Translations under genes and position numbers: made by a program
Part shown: in pieces, positions 3,205 to 48,865 of the stretch
Position numbering within the stretch: the first letter of the stretch is position 1
Layout of the letters: the number at the start of each line of letters is the position of its first letter
Assembly: GCA_947383095.1 (NCBI GenBank)
Contig: CANDBZ010000002.1
Location: 1-50,577 of the forward strand
Length of the DNA stretch: 50,577 bases
Source of the DNA: an uncultured Clostridia bacterium
GTDB taxonomy: Bacteria > Bacillota > Clostridia > Christensenellales > CAG-917
Reading direction: 5' to 3'
The notes under the pieces: generated by a model
The model's input: the letters and a program-made list of their open reading frames with translations, nothing else
What the model was told of the DNA's origin: nothing
Databases searched by the model: none

Positions 3205-3800
3205 TCAAACCTCGCTCGGCGTATCGCCGGGAGTGCCCTCCTCGGGTACAGCAACGTCCTCGTCTTTTTTCTTCTTATCGCGCTTGCGCCAACCCTTCGT
3301 TTCCTGCGCCTTAGCATTGTCTGCAGTGACCTCTTCGGCGTCTGCGGCTTCATCCTTCTGCTTCTTGTCGCGTTTGCGCCAGCCCTTGGGCTCTTCCGCG
3401 ACTTCGTCCGCACTCGCTTGCTCTACGGCGTCATCGTCGGATTTTTGCTTTTTATCGCGCTTATGCCAGCCCTTCGTTTCCTGCTCCTCCGCGTTGTCGG
3501 CGGTGACCTCTTCGAGGTCAGCGGCTTCATCTTTCTGCTTCTTGTCGCGTTTGCGCCAGACTTTTTGCTCTTCGACGGCAGCTTCGTCGCTTGCGACTTC
3601 CGCAGCGGCAATATCGTCCGCGTTCTTTTGCTTTTTGTCGCGCTTACGTCTGCCTTTTTCTTCCTCGCCGGACTCTTCTATGGGAGCAAACTTTCCTTCC
3701 GCAGTCACTTCGCCGAATTCCTGCGGCGTTTCCTTACGCTTCTTTTCGCGCTTTTTCCGGCTCTTCTCCTCGATCGCCTGTTCTTCGTCGGCTTGAATAT
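3205..3800 (-). repeat. in-frame tandem DNA repeat encoding the RKRDKK/acidic tail
   Basis: cttcttgtcgcgtttgcgccag occurs at 3361 and 3538, an offset of 177 nt or 59 codons. Related ~88-nt sub-repeats carry cttatcgcgcttgcgccaacccttcgtttcctg-type units. Confidence 0.85.
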
Positions 3801-5634: not shown

Positions 5635-5636
5635 TT

Positions 5637-8267: not shown

Positions 8268-8538
8268 AATCTTCTCCTTGCGGACACGGCGATTGCACGC
8301 GCATGCCCGTCACCCTAATAGTATATATTATGATAACATATTGCATAATATATTTCAATATACATTTTGTGAGATTTTTGGGATTTTCACTCAACGCGCA
8401 TACTCGGCGCAAAATATCGGACGGGCGAAAAGCGGCGCATAAATTTTCAGGCGGGCGAAAAAAATATTTGCCTGTATGATAAAGGTAGTGTATATTTTTT
8501 ATATAATCAGGCGGGAAAAATAAAAAAGGAGGCTTCAT

Positions 8539-9894
8539 ATGTCATACATCAACGAAGTCATTGAGCAAACCGAGAAAAGAAACGCGGACCAAAAAGAGTT
8601 TTTGCAGACAGTAAAAGAAGTCCTCGGCTCCCTCGCGCCCGTTATTGAGGAAAACGAGGCTTTATATCGCAAATACTGCATTTTGGAAAGAATAGTGGAG
8701 CCCGACCGCCAGATCATTTTCCGCGTGCCGTGGATGGACGACAAGGGAGTCTGCCACGTCAATCGCGGCTACAGAGTGCAATTCAACGGCGCTATTGGTC
8801 CTTATAAAGGCGGACTGCGCTTCCAGCCAAACGTCAATCTTTCGATCATGAAATTTCTGGCGTTCGAGCAAACGTTCAAAAATTCCCTCACCACCCTCCC
8901 CATGGGCGGCGCAAAGGGCGGCAGCGACTTCGACCCGCGCGGCAGAAGCGACGACGAGATCATGCGCTTTTGTCAATCATTCATGAACGAGCTGTATCGT
9001 CACATCGGTCCCAACCTCGACGTTCCCGCAGGAGATATGGGCGTCGGCGGCAGAGAGATAGGATATCTCTTCGGTCAATACAAAAAAATACGCAACGGCT
9101 TCGAGAACGGCGTGCTCACCGGCAAAGGCATGTCGTACGGCGGCAGCAACATAAGACCGGAGGCCACGGGATACGGCGCGGTTTATTTCCTCGAGGAAAT
9201 AATGAAACATCAAAAAGACTCGATTAGAGGCAAGGTTTTTTGCCTTTCGGGTTACGGCAACGTCGCTTGGGGCGCGGCAAAGAAGCTATCCGAATTGGGC
9301 GGAAAGGTCGTCACGATTTCCGGCAGTGAAGGCTATATTTACGATAAGGACGGCATAAGCGGAGAAAAAGTCGATTTCATGACGCATATGCTCGCCTTAC
9401 GCGCGGAGGGAAAGAGCGCGCTGCAAGCATACGTAGAAAAATTCGGCGGCGAATTCCATAAGGGCGAAAAGCCCTGGGGCAAGGTCAAAGCGGACGTATA
9501 TATGCCCTGCGCCATGCAAAACGAGATAAATCTCGACGACGCGAAAAAAATGATCGGGCTCGGCGTAAGATATCTTTGCGAGGTTTCCAATATGCCCACG
9601 GCAAACGACGCATTGGATCTGCTTGTCGAAAACGGGGTAATAGTCGCTCCCGCAAAAGCGGCGAACGCTGGCGGCGTCGCGGTGAGCGGCCTCGAAATGT
9701 CCCAAAACAGCCAACGCTTGAGCTGGTCGTCGCAGCAGGTGGACGATATGCTTAAAAACATCATGAAGAGCATACACGAAAACATCGTGCAAACGCTCGA
9801 AAAATACGACTTGCCCTACAATCTCATTCAGGGGGCGAATCTCGCGGGATTCAAAAAGGTTGCGGACGCAATGCTTGCGCAGGGACTCTATTGA
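8539..9894 (+). CDS. gdhA: NADP-specific glutamate dehydrogenase
   Basis: The 451-aa product has the GGAKGGSDFDP active-site region and the overall Glu/Leu/Phe/Val dehydrogenase pattern. AAGGAGG lies upstream. Confidence 0.95.
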   Translation: MSYINEVIEQTEKRNADQKEFLQTVKEVLGSLAPVIEENEALYRKYCILERIVEPDRQIIFRVPWMDDKGVCHVNRGYRVQFNGAIGPYKGGLRFQPNVNLSIMKFLAFEQTFKNSLTTLPMGGAKGGSDFDPRGRSDDEIMRFCQSFMNELYRHIGPNLDVPAGDMGVGGREIGYLFGQYKKIRNGFENGVLTGKGMSYGGSNIRPEATGYGAVYFLEEIMKHQKDSIRGKVFCLSGYGNVAWGAAKKLSELGGKVVTISGSEGYIYDKDGISGEKVDFMTHMLALRAEGKSALQAYVEKFGGEFHKGEKPWGKVKADVYMPCAMQNEINLDDAKKMIGLGVRYLCEVSNMPTANDALDLLVENGVIVAPAKAANAGGVAVSGLEMSQNSQRLSWSSQQVDDMLKNIMKSIHENIVQTLEKYDLPYNLIQGANLAGFKKVADAMLAQGLY

Positions 9895-21346: not shown

Positions 21347-24300
21347 ATGAAAGTTTTACGCGGAACATTGACTTTTGTGCTCGGGATGCTCATAGGCATC
21401 ATACTGTTTGTGGTGGCAATAGGCGGAACGGTTGTGATAATCGGCACGCAGCTCACCGTGGGCGATCTGCAGGATTCCCTTATAAAAAACGAAGTGATCT
21501 CTCCCGACAGCGATCTGTATAACAGCACCGTCATCGACGCCGTCAAGGGCATTTTAGGCGATATAAAAAACTTCGACGGCCTGTCTCTCAAAACTTTATA
21601 TGCTCATTACGGAATAGAATTGCTTAACGGCATCAGCGGCATCGATTTCACGAATAAGGATTTTTACGATGTGCCGATCGTCACGATCGCAAAAGACCTT
21701 TCCATTCTGGTCAATTCTTTTACCCTCGAGGACATAGGGAAAATCGCGGGCGTGGATTTTTCGTCCTACGATCTGCCGATACTGACGGATAACGTCGGTA
21801 ACAACGTGTCAACCGCCGTAGACAATATTTTGAAAACGATAAAGGGAGACATGTCCATTCGAGTTATAAAGGACGAATTCGGCGTCGATATAGGCGTAAA
21901 CAACAACGGGCTTATCGCCGCACTTCAAGACGTAAAAGTGTCGCAATTCGGCAACGTGATAAACGTACTGCGGGCAAACCAGATCATCAAAACGGACGTC
22001 GACGCGTTTATTCCCGTCAAAGGCGAAATCAAGCTTTACGTAGAAGCGGACGAATATGAAGAGGTGAGCAAGCAACAGCTTGCAAGCTCCGCATACTCCC
22101 CCGCCGCAGGGGTAGAGACCTGCATGCTGGGCGGCAAGGATACCGACGGCGACGGCAAGGTCGACGCGCAGGACATACGCGAGCTGCGCTACGTAAAAAA
22201 ATCCGCGGAGGTCGACGGCGCAACAAAGGAGATATTTGTGCCCGATCTTTCCTGCTATAAGGACGGCTTCGACGCAAACGATAGCGCAAAAACCTTTTAT
22301 CGGCACATAATTTACAGAGAAATCGCAAGCTTGAGCGAGGCGCAAAGCAACCCCGTTTACATCATCGCCTATGCTAACCGCATACAAAAGCTCGGCGCGA
22401 CCGCGGACGCGTGCACGCTTGTGCAAAGAGGCTTTATGCCTCTTGCGGAGGTCGACCTCAACGCAAAGGATTTTTGGGGCGTCGTCGACGAAACGATCAC
22501 CAAGGACAGCGGATTAAAGCAGCTTGAAAACACGGCGGGCTTCGACCGTCCCGTTTACAGACGCATATATGCCGGCACGTCCTCCGCGCTTATTCAAAAG
22601 ATCGCGTATTACACCGTGGCGGAGCTACAGGACGCGGACGGCTTGCTTGACAGCCTCACGATAGGCGACGTCGTTGAAATAAACGAGGATACCGCAAAGA
22701 TAATAATATCTCTTAAGGACAGCACGCTCAAAACCGTCGGCTCCGACATAAACGACCTGACGCTGGATAAAATCCTCGATATAAAATTCGATAACTACGC
22801 CGAAGACGCGCACGGACTGTATGTCCGCGTTCAGGACGAAAACGGCAGTTACTATACGCCGTATAACGCCGCGTTGCACGACGGACTGACAAGATATTCG
22901 CGCAATAAAGCGGACGGCTCCTCGTCGCCTATACTTCAACGCTTCGCAGGCTCTACTCTGAACGGGTTTTCATCCGCGTTCGACTCGCTGCTGCTTGCCG
23001 ACGTTCTCGATATGGACGGCGACGTTTATGCGACAGTCGACAGCGCGTATATGGAAGAAAATCCCGACGAACGCTATTACTGCTATGACGAGGAAACTCG
23101 CGTATACCGCGTTGCAAACGCCGAATATCGCAAACAAAATCCCGATAAAACTTATTATCGCGTCATAAGGACGGGAGAAAGCCCCTCTCTTCTCAAAAAG
23201 CTCGCCTACGTTCGCGTTGACGGCATGTCACGCGCTATAGACGCAGTAGTTGACGATCTGATGCTCTCCGAGGTCTTGGACGTATACAGCGAAAGCGCGA
23301 TCAAGCTGCTCCCGTCGGACACGTCCTTTGACGAAAACGCGAGATATTTTATCGAGTACGATGAAACCGCAAACTATTGCGGCGAGGACGAGCGCGGCAA
23401 ATACGCGTACGTTTGCGACGCCAGCGGCTCGTACGTCATGAGCAACTTCACATTCGTCCCCGTCGAAGCGACCTCCGTCAATAGCATTTTTTATACCTAC
23501 GGCGATTATACCGCCCTATCGGAAACCGCCGCCGCAGAGCAAATGGCTTGCGGCAATCTCTATTACAGAGATAAAAAGACCGGCGAATACAAGCGCAACA
23601 TCGTGCTTTGCTCGTATATGTACACCTACGCCGACGAGCACGGCGAGCACCCATACCGCGCGGAGGTATACCGCCGCGTGCTCTCATCCGCAACGCATGC
23701 CGACGAGGAAAACGGAATTTACGAGGGAAAGCAGTATAAATACGAAAGCGAGCTCCCCGCATACGGACTTTACATCAAAGACAATTATCGCGGCTTCCTT
23801 TCATACGACGGAACGACCGCCAATCCCGCTTTTGCCGACAAGCCGCTTTACGCTCTGAAAAAATCCGCCGACAACTCCCTTAAATACTTTATTTTGCAGG
23901 GCGATTTCAACTTTATCAAGGCGCTTAAGGGCACGGAGCTTATGCAAGGTCCGCTCTACGGCGAGGATGTCGTTTCCAACGGCGTGCTCTATGACAAACG
24001 CTCCTGCGAAGACGTTTACGTGCAAGCCGACGAAGGAAGATACGTCTTTGTCGACGGAAATTACGTGGAATTCGACACGGAGCTGCACGATGTCTCCGCC
24101 CCGAGATTTGACAAAAGGTTCGGCTATATCGCATATGCCAACGAAGCCTATTTCGAAGACGAGGACGCGCATATATCCGTCCTGTCTCCCGTCAAGCTCT
24201 CCTTCATACGCGAAAAGAGCGTGCCCGTGCTGCGCTTACTTGCGGGCGGCACCCTCTCTGAAATGAACGGGGTGATCTCAAACGCGACTATCGGCGACGT

Positions 24301-24577
24301 TATTGAAGCGGAGCACGGAAGCCTGTTCGACAGCCCTCTGATCAAGCAAACGAAAATAACCGATATCGGCAACGTCTTTAAAACCATCCTCGCAGATATG
24401 ACCGTCGGCGAGCTAATGACCTGGTCAAAGATGACGAAGGTGGACGACCGAGTGAGGATCGCGCTTGCGGATATCACCGTCGAGAGACTGTTCAACAGCA
24501 TTGAGATAACGCCCCGCAACACCTTTGAAATAAACATGTTCAAGCTCTACGGATACATCGATGATAAGACGGTATAA
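21347..24577 (+). CDS. 1076-aa N-terminally anchored protein, no family recognised
   Basis: AAGGAG upstream and a single N-terminal TM (LTFVLGMLIGIILFVVAIGGTVVIIG). A short motif of the form T-[IVL]-G-D-[VIL] recurs along the protein. Confidence 0.85.
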   Translation: MKVLRGTLTFVLGMLIGIILFVVAIGGTVVIIGTQLTVGDLQDSLIKNEVISPDSDLYNSTVIDAVKGILGDIKNFDGLSLKTLYAHYGIELLNGISGIDFTNKDFYDVPIVTIAKDLSILVNSFTLEDIGKIAGVDFSSYDLPILTDNVGNNVSTAVDNILKTIKGDMSIRVIKDEFGVDIGVNNNGLIAALQDVKVSQFGNVINVLRANQIIKTDVDAFIPVKGEIKLYVEADEYEEVSKQQLASSAYSPAAGVETCMLGGKDTDGDGKVDAQDIRELRYVKKSAEVDGATKEIFVPDLSCYKDGFDANDSAKTFYRHIIYREIASLSEAQSNPVYIIAYANRIQKLGATADACTLVQRGFMPLAEVDLNAKDFWGVVDETITKDSGLKQLENTAGFDRPVYRRIYAGTSSALIQKIAYYTVAELQDADGLLDSLTIGDVVEINEDTAKIIISLKDSTLKTVGSDINDLTLDKILDIKFDNYAEDAHGLYVRVQDENGSYYTPYNAALHDGLTRYSRNKADGSSSPILQRFAGSTLNGFSSAFDSLLLADVLDMDGDVYATVDSAYMEENPDERYYCYDEETRVYRVANAEYRKQNPDKTYYRVIRTGESPSLLKKLAYVRVDGMSRAIDAVVDDLMLSEVLDVYSESAIKLLPSDTSFDENARYFIEYDETANYCGEDERGKYAYVCDASGSYVMSNFTFVPVEATSVNSIFYTYGDYTALSETAAAEQMACGNLYYRDKKTGEYKRNIVLCSYMYTYADEHGEHPYRAEVYRRVLSSATHADEENGIYEGKQYKYESELPAYGLYIKDNYRGFLSYDGTTANPAFADKPLYALKKSADNSLKYFILQGDFNFIKALKGTELMQGPLYGEDVVSNGVLYDKRSCEDVYVQADEGRYVFVDGNYVEFDTELHDVSAPRFDKRFGYIAYANEAYFEDEDAHISVLSPVKLSFIREKSVPVLRLLAGGTLSEMNGVISNATIGDVIEAEHGSLFDSPLIKQTKITDIGNVFKTILADMTVGELMTWSKMTKVDDRVRIALADITVERLFNSIEITPRNTFEINMFKLYGYIDDKTV

Positions 24578-29261: not shown

Positions 29262-29771
29262 TTAATACGAATATTCCAGACCGTAGCACCCGTCGTCGAT
29301 TTCGTTTTGCACATGATCAAAGCCGTTTTCGTCTATGATTTTAAATCCGCATTTTTTATGTGCGCATAATGAGGATATATTTTTCTTGGACACGCAATCG
29401 TAAATCGTAAATTTACCGCTTGTTTTTAACTCGTTTATCATTTCTGTCAACAACCCGGTCGCGTACCCTTTATTTCTTAATTTCGGCATTGTTTCCAGCG
29501 CTTCGAGATAGTAAAACCGCTCTCTGATAAGATAAAGCCGCAATGCGCAAACCCATTTGCCGTTTTCTTCCAGCACATAATATATGTTGCCTCCGTTTAA
29601 AAACTCTTCTTTGATATATCTGCAATATTCGATTTCGACCGCTTTTATGGCTTCGGCTTCGTTTGTTATTTGCGGATAAAATACGGCCGCGTTTTCTCTG
29701 TTGCTTTCTTCATACACGGACATCAGCTTTTCGCAGTCGATCTCGTTCGGATTTGAAATTTTGAATACCAT
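29262..29771 (-). CDS. GNAT family N-acetyltransferase
   Basis: 169 aa with LRNKGYATGLL (an R/Q-x-x-G-x-A/G-like motif). AAGAGG lies upstream. Confidence 0.8.
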   Translation of the reverse strand: MVFKISNPNEIDCEKLMSVYEESNRENAAVFYPQITNEAEAIKAVEIEYCRYIKEEFLNGGNIYYVLEENGKWVCALRLYLIRERFYYLEALETMPKLRNKGYATGLLTEMINELKTSGKFTIYDCVSKKNISSLCAHKKCGFKIIDENGFDHVQNEIDDGCYGLEYSY

Positions 29772-29783
29772 GCTTTACCTCTT

Positions 29784-30359
29784 TCAATAATCAAGCAGCC
29801 GACCGTTATCGTTCCATTCGCCGAACATTATATTTTGTCTGGTGTTATCAATAAGCTTTTTTAGCCGTCTGTTAAATAATTCGGGATCGTTTTTCTTGAT
29901 CTGTATCGTATCCACTCTCACCCGTTGATATAGCGGCGGAAAATTTAAAAAGTTTTTCCACGTTATATCGTCCTCCTGCAACGCGGATAAAATTTCCCCG
30001 TCAACAGTAAAACCGGACGGGGACATGTCCGGCAAAACCGCGCGACCGCTGTCCGTCATCAAGCCCAACTTCTCCAATCTGCGGCACCGTTCTTTGTTCA
30101 ATTCCGACCACTCCGAATTTTTTCTGCGCCGCGCAAGCCTTTGCGCCGTAACTCCATTATCAAGCGTCTTTGTCGTGCTGTCTATCCATCCGAAACACAT
30201 CGCTTCTTCTACGGCGTCTATATACCAAAAAACATCGCCGTTTGTAGGCTTGCCGCGTTTGACGATCACCCAGCACTCCTTCTCCTTATCGTGGTTTTCA
30301 ATAAGCCACCGACGCAGCTCTTCACGGTTTTTGTCTTTCAATAAATTCTTCGGTTGCAT
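29784..30359 (-). CDS. YdeI/OmpD-associated family protein
   Basis: The N-terminal region ELRRWLIENHDKEKECWVIVKRGKP ... WYIDAVEEAMCFGWIDS is typical of the YdeI/OmdA family. Confidence 0.75.
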   Translation of the reverse strand: MQPKNLLKDKNREELRRWLIENHDKEKECWVIVKRGKPTNGDVFWYIDAVEEAMCFGWIDSTTKTLDNGVTAQRLARRRKNSEWSELNKERCRRLEKLGLMTDSGRAVLPDMSPSGFTVDGEILSALQEDDITWKNFLNFPPLYQRVRVDTIQIKKNDPELFNRRLKKLIDNTRQNIMFGEWNDNGRLLDY

Positions 30360-30845: not shown

Positions 30846-30990
30846 GTAGCGCCTGTTGAGGGACTTGAACCCCCGTGTAATAGCAGCGTTGCGTGAGCTT
30901 GCTCACTCTTGCAACCTGCGCCCACTTCGGTAGAAGTGTCGGCAGGCATAGCCTGCGCCGCATTGCGGCTTGGGGTACAGTCCCTCTCGT
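30846..30990 (-). ncRNA. tRNA-like structured element. Its 3' end is an exact copy of the tRNA-Asn T-arm plus 3' acceptor strand, and its 5' two-thirds are unrelated GC-rich hairpins.
   Basis: 30849-30875 is identical to 31024-31050 (27 nt). Nested hairpins are visible (GCCGC-AAU-GCGGC, GCAGGC-UAU-GCCUGC, CACUUC-UACC-GAAGUG, GUUGC..GUGAGC-AA-GCUCAC..GCAAC). Terminator-like hairpins bracket it on both sides. Confidence 0.45.
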
Positions 30991-31021: not shown

Positions 31022-31097
31022 TGGCGCCTGTTGAGGGACTTGAACCCCCGACACTTCGGTTAACAGCCGAATGCTCTACCGACTGAGCTAAACAGGC
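31022..31097 (-). tRNA. tRNA-Asn (anticodon GTT), CCA encoded
   Basis: The hand-folded cloverleaf has acceptor GCCUGUU/AACAGGC, D arm GCUC-AGUCGGUA-GAGC, anticodon loop CUGUUAA and T arm GGGGG-UUCAAGU-CCCUC. Length is 76 nt. Confidence 0.92.
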
Positions 31098-31185
31098 ACT
31101 CATTTATAATGCTTGATTATAATAATATTTTATGCGGATTTTGTCAAGAAGTTTTTGCTGATTGCTCTTTTCTTTTTGCTTTGTA

Positions 31186-31740
31186 TTATCGCCCGCTTCT
31201 CATCACCTTGCATCTCGCAAATTTTGAGACGCACAGCTTGTCGATATCCGTTTGACATGTCAAACGCTCACTCAAAAGCTCTCCCGCCTCTTTATCAAGA
31301 TTTGCTATACCGAAAACGACAAGACACTTCAGGTCCTCGTCTGTACTGCCGAAAAAACATGCGCATGCTCTGTCTTTCGCCTTCTTCGATAGTTTTTGTA
31401 TCCTGCGGCAGCGAAGCTCGTCGCATATAAGATGGGACATAATCTTATCGTCTATCCTGTAATAAATACAGTTTTTATTTTCGTTCTTATATTGCGCTAT
31501 AAGCCCGTCAAGCGACTGCCCGTCCGACAGCTCGATTTCATTTTCCTCATCAAAGCAATCGTCTTGCGCAATGCTCAATATGCACTCCAAAAACATTCTG
31601 TCGCCTTCGCTTTGAAGCTGATATTTGTAAATCACGTAAGTCCCGTCCGGAGAGGCGTTACAACCTATCTCCGCAAACGCGTCGGCCAATATAAGTTTAA
31701 TGTGCTGTTCGTTTAGCAACATACAATAAAGATTTTTCAT
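31186..31740 (-). CDS. hypothetical 184-aa Cys-rich cytoplasmic protein (last gene of the 4-gene cassette)
   Basis: AGAGGGA SD, 13 Cys, no signal peptide or TM, no recognisable motif. Confidence 0.7.
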   Translation of the reverse strand: MKNLYCMLLNEQHIKLILADAFAEIGCNASPDGTYVIYKYQLQSEGDRMFLECILSIAQDDCFDEENEIELSDGQSLDGLIAQYKNENKNCIYYRIDDKIMSHLICDELRCRRIQKLSKKAKDRACACFFGSTDEDLKCLVVFGIANLDKEAGELLSERLTCQTDIDKLCVSKFARCKVMRSGR

Positions 31741-31782
31741 TTTTCCCTCTTTTTCTCACTTCTAATCGGGCGATTTTTCCGT

Positions 31783-32658
31783 CTATTTATTTTCTCTTCC
31801 AAACGCCTCGATATATGCTTTTTCAAGTTGTCTTTTATCTGCTGGAATGTTCTTCCCAAAAGGGCTTTGAACGCAAGCTTTAAGCAAATCGTCGATATTT
31901 GCCTTTATGTCTTCAACGACCCATTTCGCCTCTCCGCCGAGATATAACGGACCCGTCGTCACAAAATATTTAAACCGCAACTCAACGTCTCTCGACCCGT
32001 CCGTACGCGTTATCCCGCAAAGATTGAAATACTTATTGTCTAATTTATGCGCGACTTTCAAAAACAGGACATCGTCCGTCCGCATATCTATAGCAAACAT
32101 GTAGCCGTTGTCGTACGCCAACAAAAAATACTCGTTCAATCTGTCGACGGCAATGCCTGTGAGCGTATCTCCGGATACTTTATATTTGAATATGTTTTTG
32201 ACTACTCTACCGCTCTTTGCGCTTATCAACGACAGTCCGCCCGAGGACGACGACCACTCGCAAAAAATTTTGTCTTGATATACAAACACTTTAGTCAATC
32301 TGTTTATGGGGCTTTTCCACAACACTTCGTTTGTGCATAAATCGACGCACTTCGTTTCATTCCTTAAGTACGACGGCACTATGGCGTATTTGTCGAGCAG
32401 TATGCTTATACCCTTTTTCGCTTCGCAAAGAGCGAGCGCCTCTATATTTGTAAGTTGTATGCTTCCCGCAATCTTGCCGTACGCATCGTAAAAGTCGCAT
32501 TTTGCAAGCTCGTTCATACGCGCGCCGCTTTCTTTGCTGAACATTGGATTGACAAACTCGCACTCGCATCTTAAAAACCGCGATGAATCAAACGACTCGT
32601 ATATCGCTTCAAAATTGCCTATCTCCCTGCTTCTTTCAAAATCCGACTTAAAAATCAT
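31783..32658 (-). CDS. hypothetical 291-aa protein, paralog of the 32675-33550 product
   Basis: Alignable blocks against its neighbour: TNEVLWKSP vs TNKLLWSWP, CEWSSSSGGLSL vs TEWCFTGRGGLTV, VDRLNEYFLLAYDNGYMFAIDMRTD vs INRLNEQFMFIYSEGGVFLLDMHTD, and EKAYIEAFG vs ERAYKKLFG. Confidence 0.75.
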   Translation of the reverse strand: MIFKSDFERSREIGNFEAIYESFDSSRFLRCECEFVNPMFSKESGARMNELAKCDFYDAYGKIAGSIQLTNIEALALCEAKKGISILLDKYAIVPSYLRNETKCVDLCTNEVLWKSPINRLTKVFVYQDKIFCEWSSSSGGLSLISAKSGRVVKNIFKYKVSGDTLTGIAVDRLNEYFLLAYDNGYMFAIDMRTDDVLFLKVAHKLDNKYFNLCGITRTDGSRDVELRFKYFVTTGPLYLGGEAKWVVEDIKANIDDLLKACVQSPFGKNIPADKRQLEKAYIEAFGRENK

Positions 32659-32674
32659 ACGCTTTTTTTAAAAT

Positions 32675-33550
32675 TTACGCCTCCGCGCCGAACAACTTTT
32701 TATATGCTCTTTCCACTCCTACTATAGTTGTTGGAATTCTTATTCCTAAAGGACTTTCTTTAATTTCATCAATTATTTCTTTTATCGGCACGGTTATCTC
32801 TTTTTTCTCCCATCCCAACGGGTCTGTTGAATACACGCGAACATATCCCTTGTTAACAAATGTGAACGTTAAATTCCCGTCGTTGTTTTCAACATTCGTT
32901 AAAACTACAAACTCCGCGTCTTGAGTCATAAATTCGCGGAAAAGTTTTTTAGACATATATAGTTTATCCGTATGCATGTCAAGCAAAAACACACCGCCTT
33001 CCGAATATATAAACATAAATTGCTCATTCAATCTGTTTATATAAGGATGATGCATTTTTGTATTGTAGGTCATTACCTGCCGCAGTATCTCGCCGGTTTC
33101 CAAATCAAATACGGTCAGTCCTCCCCTACCTGTAAAACACCATTCCGTGTAAACGTCTTTACCTCTGACATAAACATAATAAAACTCATTTGCGGGCCAG
33201 GACCACAACAGTTTGTTAGTCTTTATCTCAAAACATGCTGCTGCGCCTTTATATGCGCCGGGAAAAATCAAATGCTTTCCGTTTTCCGCTACAGCAATAG
33301 GTTTTTCCCATGCAAAACAACTCCACGCCTCCGAGTTTGGAAGCATAAGACGACTCACTTCGTTATCGTCGTCATCGTATAATCTACACTCCGCAATTAT
33401 GCCCTTATTTGTGAAATATTTGCAGTCGCATACGCTTTTTCTTATTTTTTCCGACTCATATTTTTCATATGTTGTAATAACGCGCCCCTCTTCCTGCCGC
33501 GGTAAGCCTCCACTTATCAATGATTTATCTATATTTGATTGCGCTTTCAT
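32675..33550 (-). CDS. hypothetical 291-aa protein, paralog of the 31783-32658 product
   Basis: AGGGGAAA SD, identical length and shared blocks with its neighbour. The strand-rich repeat pattern hints at a beta-propeller-like fold, which is inference only. Confidence 0.75.
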   Translation of the reverse strand: MKAQSNIDKSLISGGLPRQEEGRVITTYEKYESEKIRKSVCDCKYFTNKGIIAECRLYDDDDNEVSRLMLPNSEAWSCFAWEKPIAVAENGKHLIFPGAYKGAAACFEIKTNKLLWSWPANEFYYVYVRGKDVYTEWCFTGRGGLTVFDLETGEILRQVMTYNTKMHHPYINRLNEQFMFIYSEGGVFLLDMHTDKLYMSKKLFREFMTQDAEFVVLTNVENNDGNLTFTFVNKGYVRVYSTDPLGWEKKEITVPIKEIIDEIKESPLGIRIPTTIVGVERAYKKLFGAEA

Positions 33551-33561
33551 TTATTTTTCCC

Positions 33562-34311
33562 CTACATTGTCTCGAGGTCTAAAATCTTCTTCTTTTTGCC
33601 GCAATTTGCGCACTCGAGCTTTATTGTTATCCAATCAAATGCGTCTCTCCAATTCTCTTCCGTCACGACGTCCGTGCCGTCGCCGACGTTGTCGCAAAGC
33701 AGCTGCTCCTTGCCTATATTTGAAAACGTCAAAAATATTTTGTATCCCGCATCCTTGCAATGTTCTCTTTTTGTCTTCATATTCCCGTCCGCCGCATATT
33801 GCTTATCCGGTTCGTCAAAATGATTGCACATGCCGTCGTACCCGTGACATCTGCTGTCAAACAGCACAATTTCTTTGCCGCACTTTTTACACTTTGCAAC
33901 AAGATATTCATAAATCGTGGGGCTGTCGTCGTCTTCCATGAAAAAATGTCCTATATAGTTTTTATCCTTTATTGCCTCCTCAAGCGAGCCGTAATCTTTA
34001 CCCAACTCGCCAATAACATACATCCAGCAGTTTTTACCAAGCTCGCCGCCGCCCGTCCAAAGACACATATACTTTATCTCGTTTTCCTCGGTATAATTTT
34101 TAAAAGGTCCTATTCTTTTATCTCTCATCTCCTCGGCTTTTTTCTCTATTTCAGCCATCTTTTCCATAAAAGGATAACTGCGCTTGAAGTATATATATCT
34201 ATACTTAAAAACATCGCTTCCGCAATCGCAAATTATTTCGCACGTTTCTGTTTCACCTTTGACGGATACCGTGCGCGCATTATTTTTTATATATTTTGGA
34301 ATTATCGACAT
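33562..34311 (-). CDS. hypothetical 249-aa protein with paired CxxC motifs (zinc-ribbon-like)
   Basis: AGGTGG SD. Cys motifs are C-x3-C-x-C (CEIICDC), CKKCGKE, CHGYDGMC and CANCGKK. Confidence 0.75.
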   Translation of the reverse strand: MSIIPKYIKNNARTVSVKGETETCEIICDCGSDVFKYRYIYFKRSYPFMEKMAEIEKKAEEMRDKRIGPFKNYTEENEIKYMCLWTGGGELGKNCWMYVIGELGKDYGSLEEAIKDKNYIGHFFMEDDDSPTIYEYLVAKCKKCGKEIVLFDSRCHGYDGMCNHFDEPDKQYAADGNMKTKREHCKDAGYKIFLTFSNIGKEQLLCDNVGDGTDVVTEENWRDAFDWITIKLECANCGKKKKILDLETM

Positions 34312-34458
34312 ATTGCCACCTGCTTTTCATTTGTAGTAATATAGCTGTTATATTTAAATTTTATAGTTATTTTTATAAAAAGTAAATATGCTTTCTTGCT
34401 TTTTTTGCTCAAAGAATTTATATTTAATAAATAAGAAAACATGGTATTTTAAAAAGCT

Positions 34459-35487: not shown

Positions 35488-35499
35488 AGGAAGCGCGTC

Positions 35500-35508
35500 T
35501 GTGGACAA
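35500..35508. promoter_or_regulatory. DnaA box, 8/9 match (TGTGGACAA vs TGTGGATAA)
   Basis: Direct read upstream of dnaN. Confidence 0.5.
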
Positions 35509-35550
35509 CGCAAAACACATGTTTATCTTTTGTTGAAAACAAGCACGGGG

Positions 35551-35559
35551 TTATCCACA
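35551..35559. promoter_or_regulatory. DnaA box, perfect TTATCCACA
   Basis: Direct read 149 nt upstream of the dnaN ATG. I found no other perfect box by eye. Confidence 0.65.
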
Positions 35560-35707
35560 CCGCTTTTTTGATATAAATCTATATATTGATATTTTGTCGA
35601 AGTAGCAGCACTATCGATAGATTTATTGTGTTTTTTTCCACTTGTCAACATGGCTTATTTATGTTATCATTATTAAAAATAAATATAATAAATATCAGGT
35701 GAAGAAA

Positions 35708-36808
35708 ATGAAGGTTTTATGTCAGGGAAAAGAGTTGAGCGACGCTCTCTCGAAAGTTGTAAAGGCATTGCCTCAAAAGAGAAATAATCCTATACTCGAA
35801 GGCGTTAAATTGTCCGCATACGGCGATACACTCACACTCTTCGCAACAGATCTCGAGCTTGCTATAGAAAAGAAAATAAACGCGCAGGTCTTGATAGAAG
35901 GAGAAATCGTAGTTCCGGGCAAGCTGTTTGCCGACTATGCTAAAAAGATAGAAGAAGAACAGGTTGAATTGGACGGGACGACGATAACCAAGCTCGTCAT
36001 AAGATATCTTGAAAGCGAGCTTCAAATGAAAAGCCTGACAAGCGACGAATATCCGCTCTTTCAGGAGATAAACGCGGACAACTCTTTCACGATACTCAAG
36101 AAGGACTTTAAGGAAATCATAAACAAAGTGTTGCTTGCCGTGAGCGTCGACGACAGCAGGCCTGCTTTGAGAGGCGTTTGTCTCAATATAAAAGACGAAG
36201 AGGTCGAAGCCGTTGCAACTGACGGATACCGTCTCGGCTCCGCAAAGGCGTTGATCAAGAAAAACGGTATCGTCGGAAAGCTTGTCGTGCCGTCGAAGAG
36301 TATCACGGAGATAAGCAGACTTATAGACGACAGCGACGAGACGGTTACGGTGTTTGTAGAAAAGCATTATATCATGGTGGATCTTTTCCATACGAAAATC
36401 GTCACGCGTCTCATCAGCGAGGAGTTTTTAAATTACTCGAAGGTCATTCCGACTTCTTTCGAGACGACAGTTACGGTAGATAAGCAGGTTTTTGAAAAAG
36501 CGATCGATCGCGCTTCCCTTATCAACAGAAACGAGCGCAATTCTATCGTAAAGATCGATGTAAAAGAAAAGGAAATACTTCTCAATGCGCGCAGCGAGGA
36601 CGGCGAAATAAACGAGCGTATAACCGCAGGCATAAACGGAAAGGATATCACGATTGGTTTTACGGTCAAATATATTAGCGAATGCTTGCGCGCCATCGAC
36701 GATCCGTTTATAACGCTCAACTTCAACACATCCACTTCTCCATGCATTATAAACAGCGAAAACGGAAATTGGCTTTATCTGATTTTGCCGATCAGGGTCA
36801 TAGGTTAA
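35708..36808 (+). CDS. dnaN: DNA polymerase III beta subunit (sliding clamp)
   Basis: MKVLCQGKELSDALSKVVKALPQKRNNPILEGVKL...TDLELAIE is typical of DnaN. I set the start at the Met with AGGTGAAG upstream. The ORF track opens at 35642. Confidence 0.95.
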   Translation: MKVLCQGKELSDALSKVVKALPQKRNNPILEGVKLSAYGDTLTLFATDLELAIEKKINAQVLIEGEIVVPGKLFADYAKKIEEEQVELDGTTITKLVIRYLESELQMKSLTSDEYPLFQEINADNSFTILKKDFKEIINKVLLAVSVDDSRPALRGVCLNIKDEEVEAVATDGYRLGSAKALIKKNGIVGKLVVPSKSITEISRLIDDSDETVTVFVEKHYIMVDLFHTKIVTRLISEEFLNYSKVIPTSFETTVTVDKQVFEKAIDRASLINRNERNSIVKIDVKEKEILLNARSEDGEINERITAGINGKDITIGFTVKYISECLRAIDDPFITLNFNTSTSPCIINSENGNWLYLILPIRVIG

Positions 36809-36810
36809 AA

Positions 36811-36842
36811 AAAGCCGCTCATCGGGAGCGGCTTTAATTTTT
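36811..36842. terminator. bidirectional terminator between convergent dnaN and dnaA
   Basis: aaagccgctc-atcg-ggagcggcttt flanked by A and T runs. Confidence 0.75.
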
Positions 36843-38210
36843 TTATCTGTTTAAAAGCATGTTTTTTATGTCTGCTACGGTTATCTTTATACGCGTGTTG
36901 GTTTTGATCTCATCGGTTATTTTATCGCGCGCATGGATAATAGTAGTATGATCTCTGCCGCCGAAAATCTCACCTATTTGAGCGAGAGGCATCGGGAGTA
37001 AATCCGTGATGAGATAAATTGCGATCATCCTCGGCTCCACAAGATTTTTTGTCTTTTTCTTTGAAAACAAATCATCCGTAGAGATTTTATAGAATTTGCA
37101 GACAGCGCCAATAATATCGCTTGCGTCGATCGCTCCGTCTTTATCCTCGATAAAATCGCTCAACGCTTCCGCGGCGAGCTCTCGCGTGTTTATGACATTG
37201 TTTGTAAGAGAACTGAAAAACACGATTTTGTTTAACAAACCTTCCATTTCTCGTATATTAGAAGTTGCGTTTTCCGCGATATAATCGGCAACCTCGTCCG
37301 ATAGCTGAAATTTTGCCTGCGCCGCTTTATTTTTCAAGATAGCGACTCTCGTTTCCATATCCGGCGGCTGTATGTCTACAGTCAATCCCCAGCTGAAGCG
37401 AGTGCGCAATCTATCCTCGAGTGTGGTCAGTTCTTTTGGAGAGCGGTCGGAGGTGATTATAATCTGTTTATTTGTTTGATATAAATCGTTGAATATATGG
37501 AAAAATGCTTCCTGCGTTGCGTCTTTTCCTATCAAAAATTGAATATCGTCGATCATAAGAACGTCGCAGGATCGATATTTTTCTCTGAATTTATTGTTTT
37601 CTTCGTTCGATTTTGTTCTTATGACCGAAATAAGCTCCGTGACAAGCGTTTCCGCGCTGACATAAAGAACGCTCAAATTACTTCTATCCTTGCAAATAAG
37701 ATTACCTATTGCGTGAAGCAAGTGGGTCTTGCCGAGTCCTACTCCCGAATATATAAACAGCGGATTGTATTTTTGACCCGGAGTGTCCGCGACCGTCTTG
37801 CATGCAGCCAAAGCATAGGCGTTGGACTTGCCCTCGATAAAAGTGTCGAACGTATATTTGTCGAGAAAGGGCGATTTTGTTTTTTGAGTGTCGGCCATCG
37901 GCCTTTTTTCAGATTGAGGAGAAACAAGAGAATCCGTCTGTTTGTTTATATATTCTTCCTTTTGAGAAGGGAGAATGACCAACACGTCCGTTATAGACGA
38001 ATTTAAAGACGAAACGACTTCTTTTATAATTTCCAGATATTTGTGATCGATAGTTCTTTTGGCGCTTGCTGCAACGGTAGATAAAACAATCGTGTTATCG
38101 ACAAAACAAACAGGCTCGAGTGCTTCTATCCAAACCTCGTAGTATATAGCCTGTATCGATTTTGAAAGCTCGTATTTGGCGTCCGACCAAAATTTTTCTA
38201 TGTTTATCAT
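36843..38210 (-). CDS. dnaA: chromosomal replication initiator protein DnaA
   Basis: Walker A GVGLGKTHLLHAIGN, DDIQFLIGKDATQEAFFHIFN and the C-terminal DNA-binding HTTIIHARDKI. I set the start at MINIEKFWSD. The 36-codon upstream extension looks like translated AT-rich spacer. Confidence 0.93.
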   Translation of the reverse strand: MINIEKFWSDAKYELSKSIQAIYYEVWIEALEPVCFVDNTIVLSTVAASAKRTIDHKYLEIIKEVVSSLNSSITDVLVILPSQKEEYINKQTDSLVSPQSEKRPMADTQKTKSPFLDKYTFDTFIEGKSNAYALAACKTVADTPGQKYNPLFIYSGVGLGKTHLLHAIGNLICKDRSNLSVLYVSAETLVTELISVIRTKSNEENNKFREKYRSCDVLMIDDIQFLIGKDATQEAFFHIFNDLYQTNKQIIITSDRSPKELTTLEDRLRTRFSWGLTVDIQPPDMETRVAILKNKAAQAKFQLSDEVADYIAENATSNIREMEGLLNKIVFFSSLTNNVINTRELAAEALSDFIEDKDGAIDASDIIGAVCKFYKISTDDLFSKKKTKNLVEPRMIAIYLITDLLPMPLAQIGEIFGGRDHTTIIHARDKITDEIKTNTRIKITVADIKNMLLNR

Positions 38211-38216
38211 AATTGA

Positions 38217-38244
38217 ATTATAGCAAAAACAAGGAATAAAACAA
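38217..38244 (-). promoter_or_regulatory. candidate dnaA promoter with its -10 box ending 6 nt before the ATG
   Basis: The minus strand reads TTGTTT, a 16-nt spacer, TATAAT, then tcaatt-ATG. There is no SD. Confidence 0.35.
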
Positions 38245-38317
38245 GCAAAAATCCGAAAATAAAAAACAAAAGCATTATGTTGAAAAAAAATCGAGGTTAA
38301 TATATACTTATTGTGCA

Positions 38318-39406
38318 ATGAAAATCATCTCGCTGGAGCTAAATAATTTCAGAAACTATAAGCACGCGTTTGCGGAGTTTGACGACGGGCTTAACGTTTT
38401 ATATGGAAAAAACGCAAGCGGAAAGACAAATATGATTGAAAGTATTTATTTATGCTCTATTTTTCACAGCCCGCGCACAACCAAAGATAAAGAGATGGTT
38501 TTGATCGGAGAAGCAAAGGCAAATATAAATCTTATTTTGCAAAAGAAATACAGAAAGCACAGTATAAATTTGCAAATAGACGAAAAAGGCAAAAAGAAAA
38601 TATTGGTTGACAATATTCCTCTTAACAGAGCCGGCGAATTGTTTGGAGTACTCGGCGTGGTTTATTTCTCACCCGACGAAATGAAGCTTGTAAAAGAGTC
38701 GCCGCAAGAAAGACGCAGATTTATGGACGTCGGGTTGAGTCAACAGCAGCGAAGCTATTTTTATGCGTTGCAGCGGTATAACAAAACGCTCAAGCAAAAA
38801 AACAATCTTTTAAAGGAATGGAGAAATAATAAAAATATAGATTCTATGCTCGACGTGTGGGATATGGGGCTCGCAAAGGAAGGCGCGGAGATAATTTTCA
38901 AAAGGATAGAATACGTCAAGGTGTTGAACGACGCGGCAAGCAAATTTCATACCGCGATGAGCGAAGCAAAAGAAGAGTTGAGATTGACGTATGAATGCGC
39001 CGCTGATATTTCTGATAAAAACGAGCTCAAGCAATCATTATATGAAGAGATAGTAAAAACGCGAGCAAAAGACAAGGAATTGGGATACTGCACGGTGGGT
39101 CCTCACAGAGACGATATAAAAATAGAGATAAACGGAAAGGACAGCAGAAAATTTGCTTCTCAAGGACAGCAGAGAACTATCGCGCTTGCACTTAAGCTCG
39201 GCGAAGTTATAATATACAAAAACGAAATAGGCGAACCGCCCGTACTTTTGCTTGACGACGTATTGAGCGAGCTCGATATGCAAAGACAAAAGCTTTTGCT
39301 TGAGATGACGGCAGGGTTTCAAACTATACTGACCTGTACAGAGTTTGATATGAATGAAAAAGCAAACAAAATACAAATAAGCGACGGCGCCGTTATTCCA
39401 GGATAA
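38318..39406 (+). CDS. recF: DNA replication and repair protein RecF
   Basis: MKIISLELNNFRNYKHA, Walker A GKNASGKTN, and the C-terminal signature and Walker B regions (SQGQQRT, LLLDDVLSELD). Confidence 0.93.
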   Translation: MKIISLELNNFRNYKHAFAEFDDGLNVLYGKNASGKTNMIESIYLCSIFHSPRTTKDKEMVLIGEAKANINLILQKKYRKHSINLQIDEKGKKKILVDNIPLNRAGELFGVLGVVYFSPDEMKLVKESPQERRRFMDVGLSQQQRSYFYALQRYNKTLKQKNNLLKEWRNNKNIDSMLDVWDMGLAKEGAEIIFKRIEYVKVLNDAASKFHTAMSEAKEELRLTYECAADISDKNELKQSLYEEIVKTRAKDKELGYCTVGPHRDDIKIEINGKDSRKFASQGQQRTIALALKLGEVIIYKNEIGEPPVLLLDDVLSELDMQRQKLLLEMTAGFQTILTCTEFDMNEKANKIQISDGAVIPG

Positions 39407-45437: not shown

Positions 45438-47372
<1,935 letters not shown>

Positions 47373-48241
47373 TTATATAAATTATATATACAATAATATA
47401 GTTTAAATAATTATATCAGTATAATATATAAAAAGCAAGCTCTTTTAAAAAACAAATTAAATGGTTAACTTGTGAATTAAAATAACACATTTAAATGCAT
47501 TGAAAATATTCAAACATAAGCTGAATAACAATTATAAATGTCGTCAATTTTTTATCGAAATTTTAAAACGTACAAATTTTAAAAATATAAAATAAATATT
47601 AAAGCCTGGTTATCGCGTGCAACCGAAGCCGTCAAATTATATGGTATACTATTTATAAAGAAGCGGTCTTCAGTGATATTTTTATTATGAGAGCTGCGTG
47701 CAAGTAAACTGAAGCTCAATTAAAACAAACAATTAAAACGAGTCGGTGTGCAAAATTTATTACATCATTTGTTATAATCCTACTATGTTTTATAATGCTG
47801 CGCAAATTTATCACCGTAATGATGCAATTAATGTTAAGCAATTTATCGCTATAGCAATGCAATATAATATTGAGTTGCGACGCATTTGGTTTTATGGCCT
47901 TTGAATTTCAGCCGTATTAAATATGTAATAATGCGTATAAGAAATACAAACAATATTAAATAAATCGTAGGCGAATGCGTTAATATTGTATGATGATTTT
48001 TACGCTATTTACCATGCCGTAACTTGCGAGCATTCATTACGCGATTAATAGCGTAATCCCGTTTCGTATATACAAAGCGGCGTCGGAGAGGCATTTTTCT
48101 GTATAACGGTTTTATGTTCGGGAAGTCTGTAGATATTAAAAATGCACGGCATGCTAACGTCGCAATCAACCGATTTGCACAATAAACTTTAAATGTGCTT
48201 GAATGATAGAGACGGCGACGCTATGGTGAGTCTGGTTATAT

Positions 48242-48257
48242 TGTTTCCCGTGAAACA
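48242..48257. promoter_or_regulatory. parS site, 15/16 (TGTTTCCCGTGAAACA)
   Basis: One mismatch to the Firmicutes parS consensus TGTTNCACGTGAAACA. Confidence 0.75.
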
Positions 48258-48388
48258 TTTTTTTATTAGCGTAGATGATTTAAATACATAATTAACACAA
48301 ATAATGCCTGTGAATGTCGGAATGGTCGACGTGCGAGATTCTTTAAATAAGCAATGAGAAAACCATCGTATTTGCGCGCGTTTATATA

Positions 48389-48404
48389 TGTTCCACGTGA
48401 AACA
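48389..48404. promoter_or_regulatory. parS site, perfect (TGTTCCACGTGAAACA)
   Basis: Exact 16-nt match to the B. subtilis-type parS consensus. Confidence 0.9.
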
Positions 48405-48420
48405 TTTTTAGCTTGGCAAA

Positions 48421-48436
48421 AGTTTCTCGTGAAACC
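48421..48436. promoter_or_regulatory. degenerate parS-like site (AGTTTCTCGTGAAACC)
   Basis: 13/16 to the consensus, 17 nt downstream of the perfect site. Confidence 0.5.
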
Positions 48437-48712
48437 ATTGGGCGATTTTACCTACTAAATAGTAGCATTTTTATACTAAACAGAGGCGCTGTGATAAAAT
48501 TTTGCGTTTCTCCGTTATTGGCATTTTAGCAAAATTTAGCATTTTGCTCCCAAATTTTTTTATAACGAATGTTTTGCAAGAAATCGCATGATTTTTTATT
48601 GGTTTCACACAGCTAACGATTGTTTGATTTGCGTCATATTGAGTATAAATCTGCATTCAAAAGCTAAAGCGTCTTTAATTATAGAAATTAAGTTTACAAG
48701 TAAACCTATTTG

Positions 48713-48743
48713 GCCGAATAATAGCATTTTGCTATTATTCGGC
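48713..48743. repeat. perfect 13-bp inverted repeat with a 5-nt loop (gccgaataatagc-atttt-gctattattcggc)
   Basis: Direct read. It is followed on the plus strand by ggcgtttt, so it could be a weak terminator or a protein-binding palindrome. Confidence 0.6.
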
Positions 48744-48865
48744 GGCGTTTTGAACATGTTAGACCGCAGAAAATTGAATTTATGCTTGAAATTGAAGGTT
48801 TAAACTGATATATTTTATATAACTACTATATGTGCGCTGTGCGGGCGCATTGAGGGAGGAGGTTT

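Follow-up and report, generated by a model that had tools for sequence, protein, structure and literature searches.

Organization and Annotation of the Cassette

The DNA analyzed here, referred to as the window, is the 50,577-nucleotide stretch formed by positions 1 to 50,577 of contig CANDBZ010000002.1 (GenBank assembly GCA_947383095.1) from an uncultured, Christensenella-like Clostridia bacterium. Between a tRNA-Asn gene and a divergent permease gene it contains a compact cassette of four genes, g1 to g4 (Table 1), which we consider likely to be a heterogeneous polyimmunity (orphan-immunity) locus directed against the toxins of other bacteria. All four genes lie on the minus strand with gaps of 11 nt (g1-g2), 16 nt (g2-g3), and 42 nt (g3-g4), and g4 ends 88 nt before the tRNA-Asn gene on the same strand. 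The cassette DNA is 99.97-100% identical in four metagenome contigs. Shine-Dalgarno-like motifs precede g1 (AGGTGG), g2 and g4 (AGAGGG), and a weak σ70-like site (34386-34358, 9/12 matches) is present in the spacer between g1 and the permease gene. A strong promoter-like site of the form TTGACA-17-TATTAT (31147-31119, 11/12 matches) is placed before the tRNA-Asn gene.

An earlier note on this DNA had described the four same-strand open reading frames (ORFs) and their spacing, two 291-aa paralogs, paired CxxC motifs in g1, a g4 product with 13 Cys residues, the absence of transmembrane helices and signal peptides, and a complete lack of annotation, and all of these points were confirmed. The coordinates agree, and g2 and g3 share 26% identity over 290 aa (E 3e-24), which marks them as paralogs. 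The CxxC motifs of g1 start at 141 and 234, with a CxC motif at 28-30 in addition, and g1 likewise has 13 Cys residues in total. The maximum 19-residue hydropathy is 0.5-1.0 across the four proteins, and therefore none has a transmembrane helix or a signal peptide. Searches of Pfam and NCBIfam with all four proteins gave no match at the curated cut-offs (best E ~0.003), the PADLOC-DB models gave zero matches at E up to 1, and there were no PDB matches. No NTPase, nuclease, or other catalytic or effector motif was found in g1 to g4, and none of the four significantly matches a catalogued immunity family (Pfam Imm*, SUKH/SMI1, SuFu, WapI, CdiI). The PHROGs matches are limited to short zinc-ribbon-type ones, with families of unknown function. 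Relatives of g1, g2/g3, and g4 are extremely rare in the protein databases searched. Scans of viral contigs for the three were all negative, and a phage origin was dropped on that result.

Table 1. Features of the cassette and its borders in the window
Feature	Position	Strand	Description
g1	33562..34311	-	249 aa, cytoplasmic, Cys-rich; predicted immunity protein
g2	32675..33550	-	291 aa, β-propeller-like; predicted to confer immunity, relative of the cognate immunity protein of an AHH-like PT-HINT toxin
g3	31783..32658	-	291 aa, g2 paralog, β-propeller-like; predicted immunity protein of different specificity
g4	31186..31740	-	184 aa, Cys-rich ORFan; array member by position only
g1-permease spacer	34312..34458	-	147 nt, AT-rich; probable array promoter region; right insertion boundary
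g4-tRNA spacer	31098..31185	-	left insertion boundary; holds the tRNA promoter
tRNA-Asn(GTT)	31022..31097	-	ARAGORN and Rfam; conserved landmark beside the variable site

Genomic Context and Fold of the g2/g3 Family

Homologs of g2 form six clusters among 5.8 billion proteins, and a profile search with the g2/g3 family gave 24 representatives among 1.84 billion proteins; a metagenome scan with the g3-subfamily alignment (A4) gave no relative. Family members are located beside toxin C-termini or orphan PT-HINT cassettes in loci L005-L011, L013, and L039. P0005 and P0006 are cytoplasmic proteins of the same length as g2 and 48-50% identical to it over the full length; their genes begin beside a toxin gene, 4 nt ahead of its stop codon or 11 nt past it. 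The toxins encoded upstream have 1949 and 1943 aa (L005 and L011). They carry a signal/anchor at the N terminus and Flg_new repeats; residues 1720-1849 are a PT-HINT domain (E 8e-27), and the last ~100 aa make up a C-terminal domain. This last domain has the motif D[VI]HHQIPQ and gives a sub-threshold match (E 0.009) to the AHH family of HNH/EndoVII nucleases. The cassette (L003, L004) and the locus carrying this toxin with P0006 (L012, L013) were assembled from the same metagenomes, 3300006213 and 3300006147, which fits protection against co-resident toxin producers.

Other members of the family are found in orphan or solitary positions. An orphan PT-HINT cassette and small ORFs come after the g3-like P0013, and the neighbor of P0003 (61% identical) is an immunity gene of the WapI family (27.4 bits, cut-off 27). 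Both P0004 and P0012 occur as single genes flanked by housekeeping genes, with P0012 (46% identical to g3) standing alone after PNPase. In P0021 a g2/g3-like domain is fused to a domain 31% identical (E 4e-37) to the ORF that follows a g1 homolog in L016, and this composition corresponds to what Zhang et al. call a "polyimmunity protein."

A neighborhood shared with toxins would also fit a role of g1 to g4 in toxin systems other than immunity, for instance as chaperones, adaptors, or helpers of export that came along with the cassettes, and β-propellers are general scaffolds. However, immunity genes of polymorphic-toxin loci canonically lie immediately 3' of the toxin C-terminal domain (PMC3482391), and stop and start codons overlap here. 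Helpers would be useless in toxin-less loci, yet solo copies are frequent, and a dedicated adaptor is unexpected for Sec-type toxins that have signal peptides. An accessory role of this kind is therefore very unlikely.

The AlphaFold2 (AF2) model of g3 (pLDDT 78, pTM 0.76) is nearly all β. Foldseek matches the model to BamB, YncE, CJ1041C, designed eight-blade propellers, and WD40 proteins with a probability of 1.0 but TM-scores of only 0.35-0.44. Two distant profile matches that were scanned (P0024 and P0031) are PQQ/WD40 proteins (E 1e-8 to 1e-4), and Pfam PQQ_2 scores 17.6 bits against g2 (cut-off 27.6). The structural matches and the PQQ/WD40 profile relatives together indicate that g2 and g3 are probably small or partial β-propeller-like binders. 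β-Propellers were not found among immunity proteins by Zhang et al. in 2012 (PMC3482391), but Tsi1, the immunity protein of Tse1, an amidase of the T6SS (type VI secretion system), was later described as a partial β-propeller occluding the toxin (PMC3391265), and a propeller immunity fold is thus uncommon rather than unprecedented. Tsi1 has no sequence relationship to g2/g3, is periplasmic and about half their size, and targets a peptidoglycan hydrolase, whereas g2/g3 are predicted to be cytoplasmic and are linked to a putative nuclease; it serves as the precedent for a propeller inhibitor.

Several further features of the toxin loci were observed. On the 3' side of the toxin-immunity pair (L005 9949-19931, L011 8887-18633) there is a 1665-aa Big_3/Flg_new protein, then one of 1206 aa that has a Hint module close to the C terminus and is possibly a second toxin; beyond it lie PcfJ in L005 and an N6 methyltransferase in L011, which suggests that a conjugative element carries the toxin locus. 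In L012 (1-870) the 3' end of FtsH continues in-frame into the last 17 codons of the toxin (56 nt), followed by the immunity gene P0006, and from this junction onward L012 is 100% identical to L011 over 1142 nt. The junction was considered as proof of an orphaned copy and was not used as evidence because it could be a metagenome assembly chimera. In L039 a LlaJI-type restriction-modification system (4257-9824; RE_LlaJI, AAA_5, and two DNA methylases) directly adjoins the orphan toxin/immunity array with the g3-like gene, placing inter-bacterial and anti-phage genes in one cluster.

The g1 Family, the QRPD Toxin Domain, and g4

Homologs of g1 are limited to three distant clusters among the 5.8 billion proteins and seven metagenome loci. 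In the family alignment (A2) the Cys columns and the HGYDG columns (156-160 in g1) are invariant, and the C terminus is conserved as AFDWITIxLEC..C...DLETM. The invariant Cys pairs suggest knuckles of the zinc-ribbon type. The structure model of g1 is poor (pLDDT 58), and its Foldseek matches (insulin receptor and similar, probability <0.1) were dismissed as meaningless. PDB sequence searches with g4 and with profiles A1, A2, and A5 likewise returned nothing or spurious matches to designed TIM barrels.

Members of the g1 family are encoded immediately 3' of polymorphic-toxin C-termini in L014, L015/L036, L031, and L037, and in L015/L036, L031, and L037 they overlap or abut the toxin C-terminus. 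The toxin C-termini of L015/L036, L031, and L037 share a domain of ~105 aa with the invariant pattern H..H..R..TAGL.G.QRPDI..D..E.AS. Assignments of this QRPD domain to PD-(D/E)xK nucleases (RPD...E) and of the L014 toxin domain to GIY-YIG nucleases were guesses by eye that no tool supported, and both were set aside. The g1 homolog in L031 is followed by an RHS-like ORF in which RHS_repeat is sub-threshold (18.2 bits against a cut-off of 22). In L014 the homolog P0008 comes after a PT-HINT fragment in an array with a PT-HINT+LHH cassette; between the g1 homolog and this cassette, frame-shifted fragments of a KptA/Tpt1-type RNA 2'-phosphotransferase are also present (1738-2151).

The search with g4 among the 5.8 billion proteins returned the self-match only. 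No family, PDB, or viral match was obtained for g4, and it has no similarity to g1-g3 or to any ORF of the fetched loci. The reading frame itself has GC1/2/3 values of the coding type, and an ATG-initiated ORF of at least 184 aa appeared in 2 of 2000 shuffles of the 685-nt slot, making its length unlikely by chance. Its assignment to the array is by position only.

A Toxin-free Array in a Variable Site

A tblastn search of the 50-kb window with both toxins found no toxin, and a Pfam scan of 24 ORFs of the window found no toxin, HINT, LXG, or RHS domain. A polyimmunity locus would have families that are found elsewhere downstream of a toxin C-terminal domain; this is seen for g1 and for g2/g3, but not for g4, which has no homologs. 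The alternative that the array is a remnant of a resident polymorphic-toxin locus, its genes being cognate leftovers of a toxin that was lost or is encoded elsewhere in the genome, draws on the arrays of orphan cassettes that commonly trail toxin loci (L014, L039), on large Flg_new/LRR surface proteins in the window that resemble the toxin N-terminal regions in type, and on the 50-kb span of genome inspected. Neither the cassette nor the DNA beside it contains a PT-HINT or toxin fragment, however, the 147 nt between g1 and the divergent permease gene are too small for a toxin remnant, and there is no toxin locus at the syntenic sites of relatives. A remnant locus is thus unlikely.

The relatives are five Christensenella-like metagenome-assembled genomes (MAGs) retrieved by a search with the permease, for which the identity is 57-69%; the other origin-proximal genes from dnaN to parA are 66-83% identical. 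The order big surface protein/GNAT/tRNA-Asn/ArsP_2/dnaN/dnaA/recF is kept in the five MAGs, and g1 to g4 are absent from all of them. The tRNA-Asn gene is found at the same syntenic position in L022, L024, L025, and L026, and the interval from it to the permease gene varies. It measures ~210 bp in L026; in L024 it extends to 870 bp and encodes a membrane protein of the DUF308 type, in L025 it reaches 4.4 kb and encodes an acyl-CoA ligase and a protein of 663 aa, and in L022 it is 4.8 kb long. The 663-aa protein has an HEFGH motif and is peptidase-like by eye alone. The L022 interval encodes a Flg_new surface protein and a protein that matches TIR_2 (E 2e-16); the latter has 416 aa with an N-terminal TIR_2/ThsB-like TIR domain (8580-9830, minus strand). 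Its presence indicates that the hotspot collects conflict genes of various kinds. The cassette is accordingly accessory cargo in a variable hotspot, as the earlier note had proposed in calling it an accessory islet. Part of the g4-tRNA spacer (~40-60 nt abutting or close to the tRNA gene, overlapping the strong promoter-like site) is 78-86% conserved in the cassette-free L022, L024, and L025, and the insertion is therefore bounded at ~31160 and ~34458.

These results bear on the possibility that g1 to g4 are core or housekeeping genes or spurious ORFs. The cassette does lie beside replication-origin genes and has the same local base composition, but absence in 5/5 syntenic relatives and the extreme rarity of the families (the 24 representatives given above) argue against core genes. 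With conserved homologs elsewhere, g1-g3 are on the sequence evidence real genes, and the length of the g4 ORF argues against a chance origin, making this explanation extremely unlikely.

A lower GC content had been noted for the cassette than for its flanking core genes and had been counted as a hallmark of an islet. The difference holds with respect to the genes left of 29 kb (GC 0.50-0.55, compared with 0.39-0.44 for the cassette), but not with respect to the adjacent ArsP_2 permease (0.40), dnaN (0.43), dnaA (0.40), and recF (0.40), which are equally AT-rich. A low-GC block at ~29-40 kb (GC 0.36-0.45) spans the origin region including these core genes in a region otherwise of ~0.51. Atypical composition is thus invalid as a hallmark here, and an argument for horizontal gene transfer on compositional grounds was rejected.

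Integration of a tRNA-targeted island was also rejected because there is no integrase, the cassette is placed 5' of the tRNA-Asn gene, and no repeats bracket it. The only repeat of the tRNA 3' end in the window is an exact 27-nt direct repeat (T-arm and acceptor; 31024-31050 and 30849-30875), the second copy of which is 175 nt downstream of the tRNA-Asn gene, on the side away from the cassette. A terminator-like hairpin with a T-run follows this copy (30837-30820), and a similar hairpin follows the tRNA gene by eye. The repeat looks like the att-site scar of an excised or decayed integrative element, and several copies of the tRNA 3'-end repeat are present near the tRNA-Asn gene in L024. On the same 3' side of the tRNA gene, at 29262-30359, the window has a GNAT acetyltransferase (GC 0.40) and a YdeI/OmdA "bacteriocin-protection" protein (GC 0.46) without counterparts in the five syntenic relatives, and both sides of the tRNA gene are therefore variable.

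Joint Occurrence of the Cassette Genes

Joint occurrence of the four genes, the check that the earlier note had proposed, is not seen; the only exception is a diverged g1-g2-g3 block in L021, where the same order is kept with identities of 72, 73, and 64%. This lack of co-occurrence argues against a multi-component system and is as expected of independent immunity genes. The earlier note had named an orphan immunity-protein array and a new conflict or defense module as candidates. The first is borne out by the g1 and g2/g3 homologs beside toxin C-termini or orphan cassettes, whereas the second gained no support.

In its strict form the second candidate would make the four proteins one multi-component conflict or anti-phage defense system, for example one with the propeller pair as sensor, the zinc-ribbon protein, and a Cys-rich partner. 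The tight operon-like packing, the conserved order in L021, the TIR-domain protein in the same hotspot of L022, and the lack of annotation for all four proteins would agree with such a system. Against it, none of the proteins matches PADLOC or contains an NTPase, nuclease, or effector domain, none has relatives in viral contigs, the families outside L021 occur singly, either beside a toxin or alone, and g4 is absent everywhere else; a single system of this kind is quite improbable. A slim chance is left that g1-g2-g3, with or without g4, form a co-adapted new conflict or defense system or, in a milder version, a Gram-positive counterpart of the AID clusters with a β-propeller fold. As a co-adapted module, the two propellers and the zinc-ribbon protein could be immunity-derived binders working with the Cys-rich g4, and the block could be regarded as kept in at least two organisms, those of the window and of L021. 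In the milder version, the array could represent a β-propeller immunity fold, a class unfound in the 2012 census, acting against a toxin spread on a conjugative element.

Setting at the Replication Origin

To the right of the cassette the divergent ArsP_2-type permease gene is followed by dnaN, dnaA, recF, parB, parA, and gidB, and to the left the tRNA-Asn gene is followed by the YdeI/OmdA and GNAT genes and a 1256-aa LRR_5/Flg_new surface protein. The order at 35642-39406 is dnaN(+), dnaA(-), recF(+); the usual operon is dnaA-dnaN-recF, whereas here dnaA is inverted and convergent with dnaN (34-nt gap). The same arrangement is present in L022, L023, L024, and L026, indicating a clade feature and not an assembly error. 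The cumulative GC skew has its minimum near 35 kb, and of two DnaA boxes in the permease-dnaN spacer (35488-35641) one is perfect (35551-35559) and the other has one mismatch (35500-35508), placing the islet within ~1 kb of the likely oriC.

Elsewhere in the window, a ~1.4-kb region 5' of gyrB (47349-48814, GC ~0.36) has no ORF of at least 120 aa and no Rfam match. Three very large ORFs (809, 876, and 1076 aa) at 3205-8267 and 21347-24577 gave no Pfam match (E up to 1e-5). Relatives have the 1076-aa protein at 30-44% identity, and the three may be clade-specific surface proteins.

Discussion

Genes in one orientation with short gaps between them, no toxin gene, and a content that differs among relatives are the criteria published for polyimmunity loci (PMC3482391), to which the architecture of the cassette corresponds. 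Like the loci described by Zhang, Aravind et al. (2012, PMC3482391), the cassette is a tandem, co-directional array in which unrelated families and paralogs are mixed and whose content varies among related genomes. Polyimmunity proteins formed by fusion are also part of that description, and P0021 is of this type. In difference from the described loci, the cassette proteins fall outside the catalogued Imm, SUKH, and SuFu families, there is no adjacent recombinase, and g4 has no toxin-linked relative.

The AID/rAID-1 clusters (Ross et al. 2019, 10.1101/471110) are a second known form of orphan-immunity array against co-resident toxins and resemble the cassette in this respect. They counter T6SS effectors in Gram-negative gut Bacteroidales, are carried by mobile elements or adjoin a recombinase with repeats, and have been validated experimentally. 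The host of the cassette is Gram-positive and Christensenella-like, the linked toxins are of the Sec/PT-HINT type, the flanks contain neither a recombinase or integrase nor bracketing repeats, and its function is read from the genes; it does not belong to the AID/rAID-1 clusters. Among the relatives of g2 and g3 themselves, P0005 and P0006 are translationally coupled to a toxin, whereas the window offers no toxin partner for g2 or g3, and the divergence between the two sets may imply other specificities.

A number of points weigh against an orphan-immunity array. The independent toxin-linked loci are few, ~3 for g2/g3 and ~4 for g1, and mostly on short metagenomic contigs. Identity to the toxin-linked proteins is 48-50% for g2 and only 24-27% for g3, such that specificity is not assured; the toxin domain scores below Pfam's threshold for AHH, and neither Pfam nor PDB gave a match for the QRPD domain. 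As g4 has no homolog, it is without context evidence. The absence of a recombinase and of flanking repeats leaves the acquisition of the array unexplained, and the g1-g2-g3 block in L021 could reflect a joint function. There is also a small chance that a cognate toxin is encoded elsewhere in the genome, of which 50 kb was seen, in which case g1 to g4 would be immunity genes but not "orphan" ones. Finally, we infer the binding and neutralization of toxins by g1-g3 from sequence and gene neighborhood, as we do the activities of the toxins, their pairing with individual immunity proteins, and all that is said of g4.

On the reading as an orphan-immunity array, the co-directional genes would probably be co-transcribed, starting in the AT-rich spacer 5' of g1. 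The products would stay in the cytoplasm, each binding and blocking the C-terminal domain of an incoming polymorphic toxin. These toxin domains, presumed to be nucleases, would be freed after PT-HINT processing of a surface toxin from another strain. The paralogs g2 and g3 would cover two variants related to the AHH/HNH-like toxin carried on the Sec-exported Flg_new/PT-HINT protein, and the zinc-ribbon protein g1 would cover the unclassified ~105-aa domain with the invariant QRPD motif. A fourth specificity would be provided by g4, assigned by position only.

The kind of locus, an orphan-immunity array, is already known, and the concept is unchanged; what is new is a pair of immunity families not described before, an unclassified toxin domain, and the host taxon. 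If confirmed, the β-propeller-like and zinc-ribbon-type proteins would add two uncatalogued immunity families to the polymorphic-toxin repertoire, together with an unclassified toxin domain recognized by its invariant QRPD motif. The practical value would lie in better annotation of "hypothetical" islets and in concrete toxin/antidote pairs. Work on orphan immunity has so far centered on the T6SS systems of Bacteroidales, and the cassette would indicate that Christensenella-like gut Clostridia keep stand-alone immunity arrays beside the replication origin.

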